Below, one piece after another: positions 3,395 through 35,050 of a stretch of 40,851 nt of DNA. The position numbers and the translations under genes were made by a program. Every line of letters starts with the position of its first letter. Within the stretch, counting starts at the first letter, position 1. The notes under the pieces are model-generated. The model worked only from the letters and a program-made list of their open reading frames with translations, was not told the origin of the DNA and made no database searches. The DNA comes from a virus (taxonomy: Duplodnaviria; Heunggongvirae; Uroviricota; Caudoviricetes): the IMG/VR virus record IMGVR_UViG_2541047691_000017; one strand, written 5' to 3'.

Positions 3395-6300
3395 AACGTT
3401 CTTCCAGAGACTGAACCCGCTCTTTTATCTTATCCATTTCTCTGCGCTGCCATGCTGCCTCGATATAGAATAAGAGATCAGGTCTGACCCCCCATCTAGA
3501 TCCTGCTGGCGTTATTTCAACGCGCTCAATGATGTCTTCTATTACCATCACTGGATTATCATCCTCATCAACAATGATGCTCCCGTCATTATCAGTCAGC
3601 GGCATTTCCCTTTGGCCAGTAATGACGTCATCATATACTGCGGGATAATCGTCATAGCAAAGAAAGGCATAGCGGCATGTTGTGCTTTCTTCTTCCATGA
3701 GTCCGTGAGAAATAAGAACATCACGAAGTTGCTGCGCGATTACACCATGATGTATCCTCGCCCCTTCTTCCCCCTTTATAGCGACAGCGTTCAGCCATTT
3801 ATAAGCGATATACCTGACGTCACCCCAGGCATCCAGCAATGCTTCGTCAGGAGAGACCGGCTCTGTCTTTAATGTTCCGTCACTGGTAACCACAGGATTG
3901 GAGCCAAGATAAACTGTCGAGAACCTGTTTCCCGGACCACCAAGAGCATTTACATTATCAAGATAAGGTTTAACATCTCCGTTCTCAAAAAGATGTTCGA
4001 GTGCGTTATATACCGCGCGACGTGGAGTACTGCTTCCGGAACCATGCAACGTTATCATTGCACCATCTGCTGAAGACGTTGTTTCACCGCCGCTAACGAT
4101 TAATCTCTGAGCGGTAACATCATCAGACGGTACTTTCTTCGCAATAATGGCGTAATTACCCTCAAGTTTGACTTCCGCGCGAACTTGTCCTGATGTACCT
4201 GCATGGACAGTCAGTGACTGGACGGCAACATCATCTGTGAAATCAACGGGTACAGGAACCGTCCTCACGCCTGACGTCGACATAAAAGTAGGAAGCGTTC
4301 TGTTAGGAGTGGCTCCGTAGACAAAATCCCTTGAAACAAATTCTTCCTGTTTAATTTTCACCCTGAAACAATACAAATCAGCCGGGTGACCATCGTGAAC
4401 ATAAGGATATTTTCTGTTGTTATCCCCTATGCTCCATGGGTTTAGAAAGTCTTCCCCACCGAAAATGTAGTACAGCCAGTTGTCTTTGATACAAACTGAA
4501 CCAACACCAACCGCAGAGTTAACTATTCCGCCCTGATAAATCTGATCAGTAACATTAACCCACTCTACATTATCCAGACTCCACTCATTGACGTTAACTC
4601 TGGTCATAAATGTTCTTGGATAATTTCCTGCATAACGGTTATCAGGTTCTCCTCCTTCCCACTCACCAAATGCGCGCTCACTGCCAAAAATAATCAGCTC
4701 ATCGCCAACTTTGGCAAAAGGAAGGTTTGAGTGATGAACATTATTTGGGAAGCGAAGAGAATTCCATGATGTACCTAAATCAGAGCTTCTGTGCAATGAA
4801 CTACCGGGTTGAGTACTTAATGTCCCCCTGGTCGTCAGATACAGAATGCCATCATAATATTTTACACATGGCTCAGATGCATTCGCCTCATATTCTGCAG
4901 GTATGCGTCTGCGAACAAAGCTACCAGGAGAACCGAAAGCATCAGAGAAATAGAGTATCCCAAGCTCGCGTGGACCAATATCACCATTATGGTAGCCAAC
5001 AGCAAAACTGTTATCGCTAATCGTCGCAAAACTGTGAATCTCAGTAACAGGAGTGCTTCCGTCAACAAAAGAAGGAATAGTTCCAAGACTGGTTTTTCTC
5101 CATGGTGACGAGTGAAATGATGTACCAAAACTCCAGTATCTACCCTCGTTATTCTGATCCACATCCTGGGTATTTTGCGTCGTAACTGTAAAAGTATTTT
5201 TATCAATAACAGTAGTCACCGTCATATTCCCGGTAACACCTGTAACACCAGAGTTTGAGAAGTTGACAAAATCACCAGCAAATAATCCGTGATCAGTAAT
5301 GCGAATATAAGCGACTTGCTGATTTGCTGCTTTCGTTATACCACCATAAACGCGAAGGCTGCGACTCATTGGGCGATCCCACAACTCTGCAACCTGCAGT
5401 TTATTTCCGCTCACGGTCCGCGTCTCAATTACAGCAAAAAGGCGATTTCTGACAACCCCCATACTCATGCAGTGATAGTTAACTGTGGGATAGTTTTCAT
5501 GTAAATCTGTAAGCCATTCCGGCGTTGTCCAGGTCTTCCCGTCATCTCCTGAGCGAACCCATGCAACATGGAGGTTATTTACACCATGGCGGTCTCCAGC
5601 CATAAAAGGCGCATAGATGACATTGTCATATACAAACGTTTTATCCTGCGTCCAGGCGTTGTACCACGGTGTATCTGTAATTTTAAATAACTCTCCCTGG
5701 ATAAAATCTTCAGAAGCATAAAAAAGAGGCTGGCCCGGTATTCTCTCAAATAAAAAACGAGCATTTTTAAATCGACTGACATCCGGAAGAGTTGATACTT
5801 TAAAAGTAAGCCCTAATCCGTCAATTTTATAACCTGGAGATGAGGCTTCAAGGCACGCGCTTATTGCAGTGGAATCGTCATTTATACCATCACCAACAGC
5901 TCCAAAATCTTTGGGGCTAATAGCATCACGCATTTTATCCTGGAACGTTCGGTACACAGCCCCAGAACCATACTGAATAAACCAACCAAAACCACCAACA
6001 ACCCCGGAGATTGCAGCATCGACATAATTACGCATTGAGCGATTATTTACAGCGTCCTGCTCAAATGATGGATCTGCAAGGTTAGAAATTTTGTTTTGCT
6101 TTGCATCGTAATATTTTGCAAGCAAAGATGGTTTCATCAATGCACGTCTGAACCACCCAAAACATTGCTGGATCAGCATCGTCAGGTAGTCAAAGGCATC
6201 TTCATGCACTTCGGGGAAAAATTTTCCCTGATTGCGAAGGTCTGTCTCCTGCACTACATCAAGCACACGATCTATCGTAATTCGCCATCCAGTAGCAAGC

Positions 6301-6616: not shown

Positions 6617-6631
6617 TTACCTTTCAGGTAA
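6617..6631. promoter_or_regulatory. Operator-like palindrome TTACC-TTTCA-GGTAA
   Basis: Exact TTACC-N5-GGTAA; upstream of the LexA box and the 6708 gene. Confidence 0.6.
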
Positions 6632-7011: not shown

Positions 7012-7101
7012 ATTTACATCGCACTCCTCTTGTGCCATAGTAATCGGGCACTGGCAAAATCCAGTGCCGGGATTGGTCTCCCGGATTACTAAGTGGCGCA
7101 T

Positions 7102-7124
7102 ACCACGCCAGACGTGGTTTTTTT
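7102..7124 (+). terminator. Weak intrinsic terminator
   Basis: Stem ACCACG/CGTGGT around a 5-nt loop followed by T7; downstream of the 6708..6965 gene. Confidence 0.3.
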
Positions 7125-7282
7125 ATGCGTATAGCACAGTCATGCCAGAATTATGGTGGGCTGAATGGGGGTCCGAAAGGACGCCGGTACCACTTAGGCC
7201 GGTAAGACCAACTCCGTTCAGTTCACCACCATCTGATTGGTCTCAGCGGTGGTGATGTAATTCGCTAAGTGGAGACGCCATA

Positions 7283-7933
7283 ATGAACGCTCAACTCATC
7301 CCCGTATTCAACGGCACTATATCCAACGAAACCGCTCTTCTCGTTAATGCCCGTGATTTACACACTTTCCTCGATGTGGGTAAGCGATTTGCTTCGTGGA
7401 TTGTCGAACGAATTTCTGAATATGGTTTCGTTGAAAATCAAGACTTTATGATTATTTCCCAAGTTCGGGAAAAAATAGGCAGAGGCCGTCCTGCAAAAGA
7501 CTACCACCTCACCCTCGATACAGCCAAAGAGCTGGCGATGGTCGAGCGTAACGAAAAAGGTCGTCAGGTACGACGCTACTTCATTGAATGCGAGAAACGT
7601 TTAAGACAACAAGAAACAAAAGTGGAGAAGGTCTTGTCAGGCTTCATGCCCGCCATTATGGAGGCGATCAAGCTGGAAGACAAAAAAGAATACAGTGCCC
7701 CACTGAAGCCCGGCTACCGTAGCCTGATTCATTCGCCGTCTGGTGTTCTCGGCCTGACGGAGAACTCACTGCTGATGAATCTGCTGAACCAGTTACAGGA
7801 CGACGGGCACGACGTATCGGGCGCGGCGGCGGAGCTGACCACCATGTTCTGCTACATCGTCGGTGTGAGCAAATGCCTGCGTGATATCCAGACCCACGCG
7901 GAGTACATCAACGACAAGGCAGGGTTCTTCTGA
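7283..7933 (+). CDS. Phage antirepressor (AntA/AntB-type N-terminal domain plus C-terminal domain)
   Basis: 216 aa; N-terminus (ARDLHTFLDVGKRFASWIVERISEYGFVENQDFMI) fits the AntA/AntB antirepressor domain pattern from memory; RBS GGAG before ATG. Confidence 0.7.
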   Translation: MNAQLIPVFNGTISNETALLVNARDLHTFLDVGKRFASWIVERISEYGFVENQDFMIISQVREKIGRGRPAKDYHLTLDTAKELAMVERNEKGRQVRRYFIECEKRLRQQETKVEKVLSGFMPAIMEAIKLEDKKEYSAPLKPGYRSLIHSPSGVLGLTENSLLMNLLNQLQDDGHDVSGAAAELTTMFCYIVGVSKCLRDIQTHAEYINDKAGFF

Positions 7934-23683: not shown

Positions 23684-23976
23684 TCCTGTTCACTGGCCTC
23701 TTTGGCCATCTTCAAATACTGTTCAGGGCAATGCGCCATAACGCGCTGAAACAGTTCCAGCGCCAGATTGCGTTGCCCCTCATTAAATGCCATTGCCATA
23801 GCATCCATCGGAGAGATAGCGGAAAACACCCGGCCTTTCTCCAGCACCGACCAGACAACGCGACGCCCCTGTTCACTGCTCATGACAAAGCGAATGTCAT
23901 CAATTTCACGCTGTGCCATGTCACGTTGCTTACGGGCGTTTTCTTCTTTCAGTTGATCGTCTTCGTAATCTGTCAT
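23680..23976 (-). CDS. Hypothetical small protein between portal and scaffold
   Basis: 98 aa; overlapping stop/start with both neighbours. Confidence 0.4.
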   Translation of the reverse strand: MTDYEDDQLKEENARKQRDMAQREIDDIRFVMSSEQGRRVVWSVLEKGRVFSAISPMDAMAMAFNEGQRNLALELFQRVMAHCPEQYLKMAKEASEQE

Positions 23977-25652
23977 TGTGATTGCCCACCCTGACCACTA
24001 ACTGCATTCGCCATAGCTGACAAAACACTCGGATCCGAAGTTTTAGCTTCGCTTAGCGTCTTGGCACCCTGTGCCGCCGCCATCCCCATCGCCATCATTT
24101 GTTGCTGCTGTTGTTGCTGTGCCCGTTGCTGGCGAGCCTGCTCAACCTGTTCCTGCGGAACAATGACGGTTGGAGACACTCCGGACATATCAGCGAATGC
24201 ATCGATCGCCTGATCAACGTTGAGTTTGTCGAGAGCTTCTGGTTTCGCTTGCGCAAGTTGACCAATGAAGTTAACCGTGGACGCCAGACTGGACAGGCCG
24301 ATAGACTTCTGCGCCTGAGCCATGACGGAAATGTATTCGACCTTCAGGGGCATACCTTCCATCACGTCTGGCGGTGGCGGCAGCATGTTTTTACGCACCA
24401 TCATCGAGAAAGAGCGGTCAATGAGAGGATTAAGACATTCGTCGTTCAGACGCTCCAGAACCGGCCCCAACATCAGAAGTTTTTCTTCTTTCATTTCGAT
24501 CACCGCTTCAACAGGCATCGAGCGGGTATTGATGTTCTGCAACATCATGAACAGATCGACAAAGTAGGCGCTGTTAATGATTTGACGAGTGTCCTGAATG
24601 TCTGCCACCAAATCTGCTGTACTGGGGTTAACCAGATAAGCAGGCCTGAAACCATCCTGACCAGTAATCTGATCGATATACGTGATGTCGCCAGGAAGAA
24701 GGGAGGCACGCTGATTCTTGAGGGAAGTCGGAGCAACCATCGGCGGATTGGTGGCTTTATCAATCAACTGCGACTTGCGCTTCTGGAGAAGCTGCAATGC
24801 CTTAACAGGTCCAAGCGCCAGCATACCCGGGCATGATGATCCATAAACATCTTCGCCGTTAACTTCCCAGCGCGGAGCCATAATTGGAAACTCATCGAAT
24901 CCGGACTCACGCAACAACTTGTCGTTATCGCCACCAACCTCGTAATAAACCGATTTGAATGGCTTGTTCTTGCTATCCAGCTTCGATGTATCGCGGTCAA
25001 TGTTCGGGTAAACCGAATGCATCACTTCAATCCACTTCTCGTAGGTGCCGCTTTCCCACATGCTTTTTACGGATTCGCTGACGTTATTTAGCCCGAACTC
25101 CTGAACAAGCTGACGAACAGTCATAGAGAACTTGCGAAAACAGGTGTCCACACTGCCACGAGGTGAGTTAGCCAGGTAGTAACTGCCTATCGGGAATGGC
25201 ATTGTGCGAATGATGTCCTCGTCATCCTCCAGCACTGCCATTGCACCAGTGCTGTATGTGCCGAGGCTTCCGTATAACTGCGGAAGAGACTGGTAGAGAT
25301 TCGACTTATTGAACATATCGTTCATGCGGTTCTGCACCACCTCAAGCCACAACTTAACAGGGCCATAATCCATCATTTCAGGATCTGGCGTAGCCAGGCG
25401 AAACCACGGACGCGCGGGGCTTGTGATGCCTGACATCATGCCGCTGGCGAGAGTGCGCGCCGCCATAGTCCCGGTCGAATCAATAATACGTGTATTGCGT
25501 CGATCGTTACGGTTTACCTCAGAAGTCAGAAAGCGGGAACCACGCGGGTTGATGTAATCACTCAACTCGCGCCAGTGCGGCTCGAACGACTGACGCTCGC
25601 TTTCAAGTTGTGCGAACTGTTTGTTCAATCGCTCTTTAGTTGTTTCCGCCAT
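23973..25652 (-). CDS. Portal (head-to-tail connector) protein
   Basis: 559 aa; RBS GGAG; Gln/Ala-rich C-terminal tail; placed after terminase and before scaffold/capsid. Confidence 0.75.
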   Translation of the reverse strand: MAETTKERLNKQFAQLESERQSFEPHWRELSDYINPRGSRFLTSEVNRNDRRNTRIIDSTGTMAARTLASGMMSGITSPARPWFRLATPDPEMMDYGPVKLWLEVVQNRMNDMFNKSNLYQSLPQLYGSLGTYSTGAMAVLEDDEDIIRTMPFPIGSYYLANSPRGSVDTCFRKFSMTVRQLVQEFGLNNVSESVKSMWESGTYEKWIEVMHSVYPNIDRDTSKLDSKNKPFKSVYYEVGGDNDKLLRESGFDEFPIMAPRWEVNGEDVYGSSCPGMLALGPVKALQLLQKRKSQLIDKATNPPMVAPTSLKNQRASLLPGDITYIDQITGQDGFRPAYLVNPSTADLVADIQDTRQIINSAYFVDLFMMLQNINTRSMPVEAVIEMKEEKLLMLGPVLERLNDECLNPLIDRSFSMMVRKNMLPPPPDVMEGMPLKVEYISVMAQAQKSIGLSSLASTVNFIGQLAQAKPEALDKLNVDQAIDAFADMSGVSPTVIVPQEQVEQARQQRAQQQQQQQMMAMGMAAAQGAKTLSEAKTSDPSVLSAMANAVSGQGGQSQ

Positions 25653-25666
25653 TTCAATGACTCCGG

Positions 25667-25873
25667 TTACTGACCAAGTAGCGTTTTACCGCTGGTATTA
25701 GCGGTTGATGTGTCGCCCTGAGAACCGGTAAGCAGCGTAGAACTACGACCAGCAGCAGCGCGACGGCGACGAGTTTCTTCGTCGCGGGCATCAACAACGG
25801 CGGCATCCTGCTCCTGTGGTGCTGCCTGAACTTCTGGTGTTGCAGGCACTGATGGTGAGCTACCCATGCACAT
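25667..25873 (-). CDS. Small hypothetical protein upstream of portal
   Basis: 68 aa, Ala/Thr/Gln-rich; stop 15 nt before the portal RBS. Confidence 0.3.
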   Translation of the reverse strand: MCMGSSPSVPATPEVQAAPQEQDAAVVDARDEETRRRRAAAGRSSTLLTGSQGDTSTANTSGKTLLGQ

Positions 25874-25941
25874 ATCAATGACTCCGTACGCAATTAAATT
25901 ATTACCAATTTAACCACATGTGATTTATTTATCGTAGATAC

Positions 25942-25978
25942 TTGACATTTAACGCACTAATTATTACCTTTCAGGTAA
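25942..25978 (+). promoter_or_regulatory. Putative promoter (-35 TTGACA) with downstream operator-like palindrome TTACC-TTTCA-GGTAA (25964..25978)
   Basis: TTGACA at 25942-25947; palindrome identical to the 6617 site; no clean -10 hexamer at standard spacing, so promoter strength is uncertain. Confidence 0.45.
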
Positions 25979-26300
25979 GCAAAGAGTTCATTCCGGTTAT
26001 TAACCTGACTGGCTTGTCGTTAAATTGAACAGGTGGGGTGAGCTTTTATTTTGAGCAGTACGGTGTATGGCACATGCGCCGATAGCGGTCTGGATACGTT
26101 TAAGGGGCACCCTCCCTTGCTATGGCAAACGAACCAGGTAGCCGGAATGTGCAAGTCGAGCGGTTTTATTCCGCGCACGGGGATTCACCATCCCGGCGAT
26201 TCGGTGTGACACCTCGGAAGAGACGAGGGTGCAACGATGAGAGCATTTATGGAGCCGCGACAAAGTGTGGTGCCTTAACAGGCTAAGTGCTCTCAGCGTT

Positions 26301-26377
26301 GTGGCATTAGCTCAGTTGGACAGAGCAACCGCCTTCTAAGCGGTTGGTCGCAGGTTCGAATCCTGCATGCCACGCCA
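26301..26377 (+). tRNA. tRNA-Arg (anticodon UCU), argU-like
   Basis: 77 nt folded by hand: 7-bp acceptor stem GTGGCAT/ATGCCAC, D-arm GCTC/GAGC, anticodon stem ACCGC/GCGGT with loop CTTCTAA (anticodon TCT), T-arm GCAGG-TTCGAAT-CCTGC, encoded CCA. Confidence 0.9.
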
Positions 26378-26420
26378 GAATCACGCCTAAGGACCGTGAT
26401 GCCAGAAGTTCCAGGGGCTT

Positions 26421-26463
26421 GGCGGTGATGGTTTCCCTTGAAGGACTATCACCGCCATTTTTA
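26421..26463 (+). terminator. Intrinsic terminator downstream of tRNA-Arg
   Basis: Stem GGCGGTGAT...ATCACCGCC followed by ATTTTTA. Confidence 0.55.
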
Positions 26464-26540
26464 CAGCAGGACGCCATTGCGATGACTTCATGCTGTAAAC
26501 CAGTACAGCCACGGGAGGCATAACTCATTGCCTCCAGTTC

Positions 26541-26563
26541 GCCCGGTTCGCCGGGCATTTTTT
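26541..26563 (+). terminator. Hairpin plus T-run (terminator or attenuator) just before the Gp49-like gene
   Basis: Stem GCCCGG/CCGGGC, loop TTCG, then ATTTTTT; lies 17 nt upstream of the RBS of the 26580 gene. Confidence 0.45.
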
Positions 26564-26579
26564 AAGGTGAGAATAGACT

Positions 26580-26951
26580 ATGAGTGACAAAGACATTGAA
26601 TCTGAAATTCAGGCTAAAGGTTTAGCCGCGCCGCGCGTTACGCCAGACCATATCGAGAGCATTATTGCTCAGGAGGCATATTTCACAGCAGAAGATGGTG
26701 TCTTTGGCGTGGCCATAAAAGCGAAACATACTGGCGGAGAGGTAAACTACCAGCCGAACGAATCACTTTCTCTGCTGACGTTCTGCGTTCTGGTGCTGCG
26801 CAACGGCTTCACCGTCACCGGAGAGAGCGCCTGTGCAAGCCCAGAAAACTTTGATGCGGAAATTGGTCGGAAGATTGCCCGGCAGAATGCTGTAAACAAA
26901 ATCTGGATGCTTGAAGGTTACTTGCTGAAGCAGAAGTTAAGCGAGCAATAA
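26580..26951 (+). CDS. Gp49-like phage protein of unknown function
   Basis: 123 aa; RBS AAGGTGAG; resembles the small Gp49-like family seen as accessory genes in enterobacterial phages (memory only). Confidence 0.5.
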   Translation: MSDKDIESEIQAKGLAAPRVTPDHIESIIAQEAYFTAEDGVFGVAIKAKHTGGEVNYQPNESLSLLTFCVLVLRNGFTVTGESACASPENFDAEIGRKIARQNAVNKIWMLEGYLLKQKLSEQ

Positions 26952-26967: not shown

Positions 26968-26972
26968 AAACA

Positions 26973-26998
26973 GCCAGCCGATGAGCTGGCTTTGTTTT
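26973..26998. terminator. Terminator between convergent Gp49-like gene and large terminase
   Basis: Stem GCCAGC/GCTGGC, 6-nt loop, then TTTGTTTT on the plus strand. Confidence 0.5.
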
Positions 26999-27041: not shown

Positions 27042-28517
27042 TTAAGCATAGGGATCGTAATCTGTAATGGCCTTGCCTTGCTGGTTCTGCTGCCCGGGAA
27101 TTCGCAGGCGCTTTGACACCGGGAACGCAAACGTCAGCAGTAGCGCATCGCCTTTACCAGGAGAACGCCCAAGCCGCTCCTTGATATCTTCCTTCGGTTC
27201 GATAACGATTTTACCGTCCACTCGAACTTTGTACTCTGCCGCCGACAGGTCGTCCGCTGTTTCCTGGTCATCAAGCATGCCGCCCAGCCTCAGCCATGTC
27301 TTGCATGAGTTGAACATCTCCCCACGCTTGTTGAGCATCTGCTGGTCAGTAGACGCGCCACCGAACGGAACAAGTTGCCATGTACGACCCCAGCCGTCAC
27401 CGATTGACTTCAAACCGGTTCCGTAACCGAAGTCGATGAACACCGCGTCAGCCTGATACTGGTCTTCAAAGTCAGCGATACGCTTCGCCATAATCAGATC
27501 GTCGGTAGTCTTGTTGCCAGTCCACAGCACCTTACTGTGTAGCCCCTGCCGCAGGTATATCACAGCGTCATCAACGCCGGAGTATGCCGGGTCAACGCCG
27601 ATTATCACCGGAGCATGTGCCACCTGCGCAGCAGTTACCACCCGTTTCATTGCCTCGTCAGTAAGACCGGTAGGGATAAACTGCAATTCAGATGCATCAG
27701 GGAATATGCCACGCACACGGATTTTAACGAAGTCGCTATCTTCCCCGTAGTCATCAACCCATTTCTGCAACTGCTGTTTGTTGGTGCCTTCCACCGTCCT
27801 GCTGTCAATCTGCGCAGTTTTCCAGCGGTGTTTGTATTTGCGGAAACATTCACGGAAACGCCCGGTGTTACGTGTAGGGTTTCCGAAAGCCACCCAGATA
27901 ATCTCAGTGTCTTCGTCCGTTAGCGCACCCTCGGCAACTTCCCACACCAGATCCGCAATGTTCGACGCTTCATCAAATACCACGATGATGCGTTTACGCT
28001 CGTTGTGTAGTCCGGCGAATGCCTCAGTGTTGTGCTCAGACCAGGGGATTGCGTCAGCTCGCCACCGCTTGTCGTGCCCAGGGTCATTGCTGTACATCGC
28101 GGTAGCGGTACAGGTAAACCAGTCTTTCGTGATAGCAAGGTTTGACCACTTGATAATTTCCGGCCAGGTCTTCGTTCGTAGCTGGTTGTCGGTGTTGGCG
28201 GTCACCACGACCTTACAATCCTCGCAAGTGGACATGCCCCAGTTGATCAGCATTGAGATGAATGCGGATTTACCAATACCGTGACCAGAAGCACGTGCCA
28301 GCATAAGCGGCTGATATCGCGTCTCTGGATTCTGCAGGTGATCACGTATCTCTCGGAACGCATCGGCCTGCCACTGACGTGGACCGGTGGCATGTGCCAG
28401 TTCAGTACCCTCTTCCCCCCACGGGAACGCATAGAGGGCATAGCCAAGCGGATCGTGAGTGAACCCTGCAATATCCTCGATTAACTGCTCTTCAGGAGAT
28501 AACGCTGTATCTGTCAC
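27042..28517 (-). CDS. Terminase large subunit
   Basis: 491 aa; Walker A-like motif (ARASGHGIGKS) in the N-terminal ATPase region; overlaps the small-subunit gene. Confidence 0.85.
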   Translation of the reverse strand: MTDTALSPEEQLIEDIAGFTHDPLGYALYAFPWGEEGTELAHATGPRQWQADAFREIRDHLQNPETRYQPLMLARASGHGIGKSAFISMLINWGMSTCEDCKVVVTANTDNQLRTKTWPEIIKWSNLAITKDWFTCTATAMYSNDPGHDKRWRADAIPWSEHNTEAFAGLHNERKRIIVVFDEASNIADLVWEVAEGALTDEDTEIIWVAFGNPTRNTGRFRECFRKYKHRWKTAQIDSRTVEGTNKQQLQKWVDDYGEDSDFVKIRVRGIFPDASELQFIPTGLTDEAMKRVVTAAQVAHAPVIIGVDPAYSGVDDAVIYLRQGLHSKVLWTGNKTTDDLIMAKRIADFEDQYQADAVFIDFGYGTGLKSIGDGWGRTWQLVPFGGASTDQQMLNKRGEMFNSCKTWLRLGGMLDDQETADDLSAAEYKVRVDGKIVIEPKEDIKERLGRSPGKGDALLLTFAFPVSKRLRIPGQQNQQGKAITDYDPYA

Positions 28518-32002: not shown

Positions 32003-32017
32003 TTACCCCTGAGGTAA
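32003..32017. promoter_or_regulatory. Operator-like palindrome TTACC-CCTGA-GGTAA
   Basis: Exact TTACC-N5-GGTAA, 4 nt upstream of the start codon of the 31652..31999 gene. Confidence 0.5.
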
Positions 32018-34465: not shown

Positions 34466-35050
34466 ATGAAAAGTATCCAGGACGTCCGCAGGCAAAATCT
34501 CAACGACTTGATCGACCGTGAATTCAATGGTGTTCAGACGCGGATGGCAGAAAAACTTGGAACTCAGGCAAATCTGGTAAACCGCTGGGCTCTTGGCAAG
34601 AAGGTTATCGGCGACCAGGTTGCGCGAAAAATTGAAGCTGCCGCCAATAAACCCCGTAACTGGCTTGATATCGATCGCTCGCTTTCTCAGGAAGGTTTTC
34701 AGCCTGTCGGCCCAAGCGACATTGGCCAGCTGGCGGCTCACAACCTGGAACGCTGGATGAGCGAAAGCCGCGACCTTTCAACACAGGGAAAACTTCACCG
34801 CGCATCCGGCGTCGCCCAGGTGACAATCAGCCGCCTGTTAAACAATGAGGTCAGCGTTTCCATTTCCACCCTGGAGAATGTTGCATCCGCATTCGGGCGT
34901 CACGGCTATGAATTACTGATTCACCCGCACGACCCTGCGACCATCAACTATGACCGCTCGCGCTACGCATTGTTACCCGAAACCGAGAAAGCAAAGATCG
35001 AAAGTTACATTGAATTTGTCATCAACCAGAACGAAAAAAACAAACAATAA
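34466..35050 (+). CDS. Prophage repressor candidate: tandem-HTH (two XRE-type HTH domains) protein without an autocleavage domain
   Basis: 194 aa; HTH-like segments TRMAEKLGTQANLVNRWALGKK and ASGVAQVTISRLLNNEVSVSISTL; no Ala-Gly / Ser-Lys peptidase S24 module seen; divergent from Cro-like gene. Confidence 0.6.
   Translation: MKSIQDVRRQNLNDLIDREFNGVQTRMAEKLGTQANLVNRWALGKKVIGDQVARKIEAAANKPRNWLDIDRSLSQEGFQPVGPSDIGQLAAHNLERWMSESRDLSTQGKLHRASGVAQVTISRLLNNEVSVSISTLENVASAFGRHGYELLIHPHDPATINYDRSRYALLPETEKAKIESYIEFVINQNEKNKQ

Follow-up and report, generated by a model that had tools for sequence, protein, structure and literature searches.

Conserved structured RNA in an operator-controlled, non-coding cassette of a Uetakevirus and of unrelated temperate phages

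Non-coding cassette between the portal and terminase genes

We analyzed a 40,851-nucleotide stretch of viral DNA (IMG/VR record IMGVR_UViG_2541047691_000017; hereafter, the window), which is 97-98% identical to Escherichia phage phiV10, vB_EcoP_ZX5 and the O157 typing phages 9 and 10, all of the genus Uetakevirus (epsilon15-like). Between its minus-strand portal and large terminase genes, positions 25942-26563 form a self-contained, operator-controlled, non-coding cassette, the leader of which contains a core structured RNA belonging to an unclassified RNA family with a fold maintained by selection. A previous sequence-only reading had placed here a separate plus-strand unit consisting of a TTGACA element with an operator palindrome, a leader (25980-26300) devoid of a convincing open reading frame (ORF), a tRNA-Arg(UCU) and 2 terminator-like hairpins, followed by a Gp49-like gene. 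All these components were recovered: the neighboring genes lie as described, both ARAGORN and Rfam recognize the tRNA, the 2 hairpins are followed by thymidine runs (26420-26457 then TTTTT; 26541-26556 then TTTTTT), the longest ORF of the leader does not exceed 54 amino acids, and the downstream gene belongs to Pfam family PF13876. By contrast, the leader is not unusually GC-rich, as had been claimed: its GC content of 52.3% compares with a window mean of 48.9% (standard deviation 4.3), and 20% of equal-sized windows are as rich; the core alone has a GC content of 58%. The tRNA, the terminators and the Gp49-like gene are already known.

The cassette runs, in order, through promoter and operator, 5' hairpin, core RNA, P6 with its insert, tRNA-Arg(UCU), hairpin A, terminator T1, 2 hairpins and terminator T2. 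The leader is thus modular, with at least 3 modules (5' hairpin, core and P6 cassette), and the whole conserved folded leader RNA spans approximately 180-250 bases. The features of the locus are as follows (numbers preceded by L denote related loci).

23973-25652, minus strand: portal gene (Pfam Head-tail_con, PF12236)
25667-25873, minus strand: small ORF
25942-25947, plus strand: -35 hexamer TTGACA, read in the sequence
25964-25978, unstranded: operator palindrome TTACCTTTCAGGTAA (TTACCT-TTC-AGGTAA), recurrent in the window
25965-25970, plus strand: putative -10-like hexamer TACCTT, at a 17-nucleotide (nt) spacer from the -35 hexamer and within the left operator half-site
25982-26047, plus strand: 5' leader hairpin (resembling "module X," see below), counterpart of the epsilon15 stretch labeled "RNaseIII"
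26060-26235, plus strand: core structured RNA of approximately 176 nt, with 5 helices and at least 1 pseudoknot (covariance model R1, 145 bits)
26231-26302, plus strand: P6 module, an 18-bp closing helix (26231-26249 with 26284-26302) around an insert (26250-26283) that forms 2 small hairpins
26301-26377, plus strand: tRNA-Arg, anticodon UCU, CCA encoded (ARAGORN; Rfam RF00005, 73.3 bits)
26380-26400, plus strand: hairpin A (AUCACG / CGUGAU), from folding; also found after a tRNA-like module in the lambdoid loci L015, L057, L084 and L109
26420-26462, plus strand: terminator T1, a 15-bp stem GGCGGUGAU...AUCACCGCC followed by UUUUU (terminator scan and folding)
26460-26499 and 26511-26538, plus strand: 2 further hairpins (fold of 26460-26566: -39.4 kcal/mol, z -4.2)
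26541-26563, plus strand: terminator T2, GCCCGG-UUCG-CCGGGC followed by A and UUUUUU, ending 2 nt before the Shine-Dalgarno sequence of the Gp49-like gene
26580-26951, plus strand: Gp49/Sf6-gp66 family gene (Pfam PF13876, 121 bits)
26972-26991, plus strand: third terminator, after the Gp49-like gene (terminator scan)
27042-28517, minus strand: large terminase gene, named from phage records; the Pfam search gave no match

Conserved RNA fold in the leader

The core comprises the following elements.

26061-26081, plus strand: helix P1, loop GGCAC
26089-26093 with 26134-26138, plus strand: helix P2, which encloses a variable domain
26137-26155, plus strand: invariant strand GGUAGCCGGAAUGUGCAAG
variable position, plus strand: helix P3
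26180-26183 with 26191-26194, plus strand: helix P4, loop UUCACCA
26186-26189 (CACC) with 26203-26206 (GGUG), plus strand: pseudoknot
26212-26216 with 26224-26228, plus strand: helix P5, loop GAAGAGA

The invariant 19-mer GGTAGCCGGAATGTGCAAG (26137-26155) was found in at least 120 IMG/VR contigs, from which 42 representatives were chosen at <92% identity; 36 of these were aligned with MAFFT (alignment A3). In this alignment, 97.1% of the cells are paired and 11 pairs show compensatory change, which was equaled in none of 500 column shuffles, and sliding the partners against each other lowers the pairing to 27-48%. Among 76 distinct sequences taken from R1 matches in related loci, pairing extends to 96.4% of the cells, and compensatory change is seen in 12 of the 22 pairs; this alignment was fitted to the R1 model and is hence biased toward that structure. 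R1 itself has exactly 1 match in the window (145 bits) and 101 matches in 100 related loci. The pseudoknot pair changes to AACC/GGUU in the mEp460 lineage, whereas a possible second pseudoknot, between GCAC of the P1 loop and GUGC of the 19-mer, involves invariant bases, so that no covariation signal is obtainable. Approximately 55 core bases, mostly in loops and junctions, are invariant. The plus strand folds better than its shuffles (z -2.7), whereas the minus strand does not (z -1.1). The earlier suggestion that the leader may be a structured RNA is therefore strongly supported through covariation.

The other suggestion for this region, degenerate tRNA remnants, did not hold: neither ARAGORN nor Rfam finds anything tRNA-like in the core, and T-arm-like hairpins are present only in some P6 inserts elsewhere (L012 and L103). 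A search of 25850-26620 against Rfam 15 returned no family other than tRNA even at E<=10, leaving the leader blank, and no leader module (core, P6 or 5' hairpin) was matched in 10 related loci; assignment of the core to a known RNA family was rejected on this basis. A protein-coding leader was rejected as well, with no frame open in more than 14 of the 36 representatives and with spacings between the invariant anchors falling in all mod-3 classes. The mEp460_037 ORF (L002 2943-3311, minus strand), which is antisense to the RNA core, looks like a mis-call. A retron- or DRT-type reading found no reverse transcriptase among the neighbor families (repressor, cII-like, YfdP/Q/R-like, ParB-like, Ban, portal and terminase). 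Neither Rfam 15 nor RefSeq annotation contained the core-P6 leader, and no description of it was found in the searchable literature (sequence search, with the ZX5 and sRNA-17 papers included); the P1 genome paper and one 2026 preprint lie beyond that scope, so that an earlier description is not fully excludable.

P6 module and its cargo

P5 is followed by GUGCAAC and then by the P6 helix of 16-18 bp; the 76-nt module folds at -34.2 kcal/mol (z -5.0). The helix is present in 86 of 128 related loci, around inserts of 8-235 nt, and shows many compensatory changes over 22 distinct strand pairs. Insert types are individually conserved and common to different scaffolds and phage groups: that of the window also occurs in mEp460-type and L125-type cores, whereas L034, with an identical scaffold, has another type. 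The last 2 bases of P6 are the first 2 of tRNA-Arg, and the slot after GUUGUGG at the P6 base is occupied either by this tRNA-Arg(UCU), directly 3' of P6 in 28 of the 128 loci including the window, or by a module starting with GUGGUGAAUGCGCAGG, which corresponds to the small RNA sRNA-17.

Several roles for the insert were considered and rejected. Antisense pairing with the 5' hairpin sequence GUCGUUAAAU (CGACAA/UUGUCG and UUAAC/GUUAA) failed because insert and leader assort independently: a given insert is also found next to leaders without the site, and a given leader next to different inserts. The 12-mer TGCCTTAACAGG (26271-26282) recurs in the minus-strand portal gene (24798-24809), in an orientation that would make the insert RNA antisense to the portal mRNA; with approximately 0.08 such matches expected per orientation, the recurrence is not significant. 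No antisense target was found for the insert. A boxA in the 3' strand of P6 was discarded, its bases varying with their pairing partners as in a helix strand, and so was a promoter within the insert for tRNA or sRNA-17: the insert lacks both conservation and any convincing hexamer. Processing is a more likely source of the tRNA and sRNA-17 5' ends than an internal promoter. We also note a 9-codon ORF in the insert (26249-26278: ATG GAG CCG CGA CAA AGT GTG GTG CCT TAA), in which several relatives have synonymous changes only (GAA, CCG, CCA), one is frameshifted and one lacks the ATG; this may be a coincidence.

The tRNA-Arg scores far above the Rfam gathering threshold (73.3 vs 29 bits), has its anticodon tct at position 35 and is the sole ARAGORN tRNA in the window. 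Over 71 nt, it shares 85.9% identity with a tRNA-Arg that every one of the 5426 E. coli genomes carries on its chromosome and that we infer, from its map position in several genomes, to be argU. Although several phiV10-like records already annotate this tRNA, the RefSeq phiV10 record has none and instead carries a minus-strand ORF, PhiV10p04, across tRNA-Arg and the hairpins (window 26307-26558, minus strand), which looks like a mis-call. The proposal that the tRNA supplements rare codons is plausible: in 45 window ORFs, AGA and AGG account for 7.3 (12.2% of the arginine codons) and 4.3 per 1000 codons, respectively, roughly 3 times the E. coli K-12 level of about 2 for AGA and 1-1.5 for AGG. 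A tRNA directly abuts the element in 45 of 128 loci; approximately 65% of the family members have no tRNA next to the core.

sRNA-17 is a 193-nt RNA of E. coli K1 RS218 that was mapped by 5'/3' rapid amplification of cDNA ends (RACE) and Northern blot, reported without an Rfam homologue and detectable in a lysogen (Song et al. 2020, PMC7719688). In mEp460-type prophages, it is the module immediately 3' of P6 (L002 3240-3432; L250 2693-2501, minus strand). Its RACE 5' end lies at the GTTGTGG base of P6 and its 3' end at an intrinsic terminator, so that the upstream region, which had been taken as promoter DNA with an ArcA site (PMC7719688), includes the core and P6. The module, GUUGUGGUGAAUGCGCAGG...UCACCACAAC plus terminator, is present in mEp460 and not in the window, where tRNA-Arg fills the slot. 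Its ends pair (GUUGUGGUGA/UCACCACAAC) and are followed by AGCCA; because they resemble an acceptor stem, RNase P may cut at this junction. The sRNA-17 module is found in approximately 1600 of the 5426 E. coli genomes and can occur without the core (E2863).

The 5' hairpin appears related to a further P6-like unit. In the window, 25976 to 26060 folds at -21.9 kcal/mol (z -1.7), whereas the Tyrion homologue folds much better (z -4.4) and has flanks, CAAC / GGUGUG, that resemble those of P6. Modules related to the 5' hairpin and containing GTCGTTAAAT lie downstream of terminator T1 in lambdoid loci. Module X is such a second P6-like unit, with the flanks ACAAC...TTGTGGAGAA and an insert with GTCGTTAAAT, located 300-600 nt after the core in L013, L015, L057, L069, L109 and L116; it stands after T1 in lambdoid leaders and before the core in Uetakeviruses. 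Leaders with the second unit amount to 0.8-1 kb of structured non-coding RNA ahead of the first ORF.

Promoter, operator and terminators

The arrangement TTGACA-spacer-ATTACCT-N3-AGGTAA is kept in the divergent Uetakevirus-like loci L007, L067 and L084, with the hexamer and the operator equally far apart, and L061 has TTGGCA instead. A strict sigma-70 scan called no promoter at TTGACA because the best -10 candidate, TACCTT, is weak, agreeing with TATAAT at 3 of 6 positions (T, A and the final T). The operator palindrome is a repeated site, with 16 window matches at <=2 mismatches, of which 5 are perfect, compared to 1.04 expected; none of 100 shuffles reached that number. Copies flank an isrK/C4-antirepressor module and an HTH_3 protein, and the epsilon15 record has a repressor site annotated near the equivalent position, with integration host factor (IHF) sites marked too. 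TTACCT-N3-AGGTAA copies at window positions 32003, 32065, 34396, 35108 and 35170 cluster around the HTH_3 protein (34466-35050), which is probably the phage repressor. This distribution suggests a repressor regulon scattered over the genome, as in phage P1. The module flanked by copies at 6617, 6997 and 8000 consists of an isrK-like RNA (7048-7124) and a C4 antisense RNA (7149-7233) directly upstream of an AntA/AntB antirepressor ORF (7283-7933); 7048-7933 is thus a P1/P7-type immI module in a Uetakevirus. In mEp460, an isrK-C4 pair is likewise located upstream of the Rha antirepressor (L002 706-894).

At the other end of the cassette, no promoter-like site was found by the promoter scan between T1 and the ATG of the Gp49-like gene, and T2 adjoins the Shine-Dalgarno sequence of this gene, which therefore depends on read-through of T1 and T2. 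A counterpart of T1, GGCGG...CCGCC-UUUU, lies at the same place in lambdoid loci. T2 is conserved in Tyrion and Klebsiella phages, and epsilon15 has a different hairpin there, annotated as a rho-independent terminator. The window and the lambdoid leaders share the same module order: core, P6, tRNA or tRNA-like module, hairpin A, T1, more hairpins, terminator and first ORF. Using a revised terminator finder (an earlier, home-made one was too strict), we detected at least 1 sense intrinsic terminator <=700 nt after the core in 85 of 100 distinct loci (mean 1.34), compared to 28 of 77 (mean 0.45) for a control region further downstream.

Occurrence of the core in temperate phages

By blastn, 26060-26300 is found at 70-83% identity in unrelated phages, including the lambdoids mEp460, cdtI, 2H10, mEp390, Stx2c and some Stx2a phages, as well as P1, P7, D6, RCS47, SJ46, Klebsiella phages, 2 Stenotrophomonas phages and other Uetakeviruses. 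Among 5426 complete E. coli genomes, 1837 (34%) carry the core, in up to 4 copies and with 554 places on plasmids, and RefSeq carries no annotation over it in these genomes. In one-genome-per-species data, R1 confirmed the core only in Enterobacterales (Citrobacter, Kluyvera, Klebsiella, Kosakonia, Erwinia, Phytobacter, Superficieibacter and Escherichia). A wider phylogenetic spread, indicated by a 16-mer scan of 596 Gb, was rejected, since approximately 280 chance matches are expected; the 16-mer was poorly suited to a scan of this size, for which the 19-mer would have been the better choice.

In every context examined, the core is sense to transcription. In several unrelated temperate-phage lineages, it lies downstream of a repressor-controlled or operator-bearing early promoter and also upstream of at least 1 intrinsic terminator preceding the first protein-coding gene. 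Of the 128 viral loci, 61 have a gene for a cI-type S24 repressor directly upstream on the same strand, together with a divergent cII-like gene and YfdP/Q/R-like early-left genes downstream, a layout likewise seen in mEp460, Stx2a_1447, mEp390 and a Stenotrophomonas phage. At 50-85 nt upstream of the P1 helix, promoters are clearly recognizable and bear palindromic operators. The cI of mEp460 is homologous to that of HK022, and the next slot is occupied by PL-putL in HK022, where putL lies just downstream of PL (PMC9378689), and by the core in mEp460. No N is annotated in the mEp460 record and none of the 9 frequent neighbor families of the core is an N-like antiterminator; the mEp phages, a collection that includes mEp460, were isolated as Nus-dependent (PMC11893012). 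In phage P1, the core is located in the C1/Op72-controlled ban operon, before ban and 2.3 kb from the promoter, and in P1-like loci it begins 13 nt after the CCA of tRNA-Ile2(CAU).

What follows the core varies and can be a tRNA, sRNA-17, a boxA-like site, an ORF or ban. In L032, L045, L088 and L254, P6 is replaced and a canonical rrn/nut-type boxA (GCTCTTTAACAA or GCTCTTTAATAA; GCTCTTTAAAAA in L045) stands approximately 20-60 nt after P5, with a hairpin before it. Nearly all genomes have a single core copy. L026 has 2 tandem cores approximately 650 nt apart, at 4800-4958 and 3993-4153 (both minus strand), the second of which has diverged, with GGAAGCTGG in the 19-mer, GTGTCG for GTGGCG and a broken loop-closing P5 pair. 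Epsilon15 and a close relative keep only P1-P2, followed by unrelated sequence, and retain the layout of a terminator followed by the Gp49-like gene (L004 2470-2725; L259). An STnc100 small RNA (Rfam, 56 bits) was found at L069 12252-12457, on a contig that also carries one core family member.

Possible functions of the leader RNA

We tentatively favor a function in cis, whereby the leader would let RNA polymerase read through downstream terminators. This function, which we infer from sequence and position, is possible although far from assured. The core would act on the transcribing RNA polymerase in the manner of HK022 put RNA, possibly with host Nus factors. Polymerases starting at the derepressed promoter would pass T1 and T2 into the Gp49-like gene and, in lambdoids, the sRNA-17/T1 terminators into the early-left operon, whereas in the repressed or unmodified state the transcript would stop at T1 or T2, yielding small RNAs only. 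RNase P would free tRNA-Arg at 26300/26301, thereby also setting the 3' end of the leader, and the tRNA might add decoding capacity for AGA-rich phage genes. Such read-through would explain why the core is always in sense orientation behind repressor-controlled or operator-bearing early promoters, why no expression platform is fixed, why terminators stand before the first ORF, and why unpaired bases are so highly conserved among unrelated phages that infect related hosts. The approximately 55 invariant bases, most of them in loops and junctions, fit an interaction surface for a conserved host machine, and the variable downstream sequence fits a function without a fixed expression platform.

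Several observations weigh against read-through in cis. The core has neither sequence nor structural likeness to put RNA, R1 has no match in HK022, and the usual single copy (2 in tandem in L026) compares with putL plus putR in HK022. In phage P1, the distance of 2.3 kb from the promoter is accompanied by no obvious terminator seen between the core and ban, and epsilon15 keeps the terminator-then-gene layout without a full core. The enrichment of terminators is equally expected for a plain set of small-RNA genes. Furthermore, detection of sRNA-17 in a lysogen implies that the transcript is not strictly lytic (PMC7719688), and the boxA resemblance of the 3' strand of P6 fails across the family.

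The main rival is a stable, processed RNA acting in trans, which we consider rather unlikely: the core, with or without P6, would be excised by host RNases, among them RNase P at the junction with the tRNA or sRNA-17, and would bind or titrate a host or phage protein, for example as an anti-defense decoy or a lysis-lysogeny regulator, with the exchangeable P6 cap as its specificity module. The module limits indeed coincide with tRNA ends, both in P1-like loci, 13 nt after the CCA of tRNA-Ile2, and at the P6/tRNA-Arg boundary in 28 loci. The RACE 5' end of sRNA-17 falls at the same P6 junction, P6 is built like the C4 RNA of the window (long stem and 2 inner hairpins), and insert types are conserved yet swapped between scaffolds, as for specificity cassettes. 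The first place in an early operon, moreover, is typical of anti-defense factors. Conversely, in phage P1 and L069-type loci the core continues into the 5' untranslated region (UTR) ahead of a protein-coding sequence, and neither a terminator nor a 3' processing site intervenes. The genes beside the core include no conserved protein partner, the insert has no antisense target among those sought, and no discrete RNA species has been reported. A device for RNA maturation, either a self-cleaving ribozyme or a guide for RNase P, III or E that gives tRNA-Arg or sRNA-17 its correct 5' end and protects the long untranslated transcript, appears improbable. It would account for the tRNA abutting the element in 45 of 128 loci, for the sRNA-17 5' end at the P6 base and for the 16-18-bp near-perfect P6 duplex, given that the epsilon15 record names the upstream hairpin an RNase III site; small ribozymes are known beside phage tRNAs. 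However, RNase P requires no such leader for tRNAs, the core is kept with no small RNA behind it in the case of the P1 ban gene and the L069 ORF, no Rfam ribozyme matches, and 176 nt is large for a processing signal.

We give about the same low weight to a riboswitch-like sensor of a metabolite, ion, tRNA or second messenger that sets early transcription past the terminators. Early transcripts carry the core in their untranslated leader, at several loci directly in the 5' UTR, and the core combines many invariant junction and loop nucleotides with a covariation-supported pseudoknot, as aptamers do; in addition, the P4 loop always contains ACCA, paired with UGGU, which may resemble the contact of T-box RNAs with the tRNA 3' end. 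A conserved expression platform is nevertheless missing, the sequence after P5 being unrelated between lineages, no terminator or Shine-Dalgarno-sequestering helix overlaps the core, no Rfam riboswitch matches and the neighboring genes suggest no ligand. Finally, an explanation with no function at the RNA level, that is, a selfish or DNA-level element (MITE-like repeat, protein-binding site or recombination hotspot) or a mis-read protein gene, is nearly excluded. The core does occur in many unrelated phage backbones at 70-98% identity, like a mobile module, and some records annotate ORFs over it or over the adjoining tRNA region. However, compensatory double changes keep 4 helices plus P6, many pairs are G-U and only the plus strand folds better than shuffles, the core always lies in sense to transcription and is bordered by neither target duplications nor terminal inverted repeats, and the frames and anchor spacings of the representatives are those of non-coding sequence.

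More broadly, the core could represent a new class of RNA that binds a host machine, acting either on RNA polymerase, as a modifier that is unrelated to put and needs no protein, or as an anti-defense decoy expressed early. It would be a portable module in unrelated temperate lineages, P1 included, coupled to the P6 socket and to a slot that takes C4-like hairpins, tRNA-Arg or sRNA-17. This proposal is speculative, and we regard it as doubtful.

Comparison with known systems

If its fold is functional, the core ranks among the most frequent conserved RNAs in E. coli prophages, being carried by 34% of complete genomes in addition to P1-type phage-plasmids, yet it is missing from Rfam and from annotation. 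The closest functional parallel is the put RNA of HK022, which binds the zinc-binding domain of the RNA polymerase beta' subunit and suppresses termination without protein factors. Put is the only phage RNA known to make RNA polymerase terminator-resistant unaided. In lambdoids, the core is found in the same slot as put, just downstream of the early-left promoter after a homologous cI (PMC9378689), and both are sense-strand nascent RNAs of phages without N that have terminators to pass downstream. However, put is approximately 70 nt long with 2 stems, compared to approximately 176 nt, 5 helices and at least 1 pseudoknot in the core, and the 2 RNAs have no sequence similarity; homology was rejected given that R1 finds no match in HK022 and the putL region shows no resemblance to the core. 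Put is present in 2 copies, whereas the core is usually present once, at one place per record and with no second copy on the PR side. The core is found in P1 and Uetakeviruses as well, in positions remote from lambdoid early promoters. Were the read-through function true, the core would be a second, unrelated and far more widespread class of antitermination RNA and would make it testable how N-less lambdoids run their early operons.

The core also occupies the nutL position of lambdoids, and the mEp phages are Nus-dependent (PMC11893012). The 3' strand of P6 reads UGCUCUCA, which is boxA-like, and a few relatives have canonical GCTCTTTAACAA right after the core. Unlike lambda nut, no boxB-like hairpin with a GAAA-type loop is present in the sequences read, and there is no N-like gene among the 9 neighbor families or in the mEp460 annotation. 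Furthermore, the boxA-like bases co-vary with their partners (GCGCUC, GCCCUU and GCCGUU), and the boxA consensus (CGCUCUUA / UGCUCUUUAACAA) is not conserved as a sequence.

P6 is best compared with the C4/CI antisense RNAs (P1/P7 C4 and P4 CI; RF01695, clan CL00128). As in the C4 of the window, a 17-18-bp stem closes the 76-nt P6 around 2 small hairpins; P6 lies inside an operon leader by a predicted RNase P site and has inner loops that differ from phage to phage. However, the C4 model matches 7149-7233 (61 bits) and not 26231-26302, even at E<=10. No complementary targets were found within the transcript itself, and the insert does not co-vary with the leader.

As for the cargo, sRNA-17 fills, in mEp460-like prophages, the slot held by tRNA-Arg in the window (PMC7719688), which itself lacks the sRNA-17 module. 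If the proposed function is true, sRNA-17, which is linked to E. coli K1 virulence, would be a cargo processed from a longer structured transcript and its "promoter" would be RNA. With respect to other phage tRNAs, such as argU-like tRNA-Arg(UCU) and those of the P1 ban operon, the tRNA of the window is itself ordinary and differs in being one interchangeable cargo of a cassette. This cassette is a compact, repressor-gated unit for small-RNA expression, of relevance to phage engineering, phiV10 already being in use as a reporter phage.

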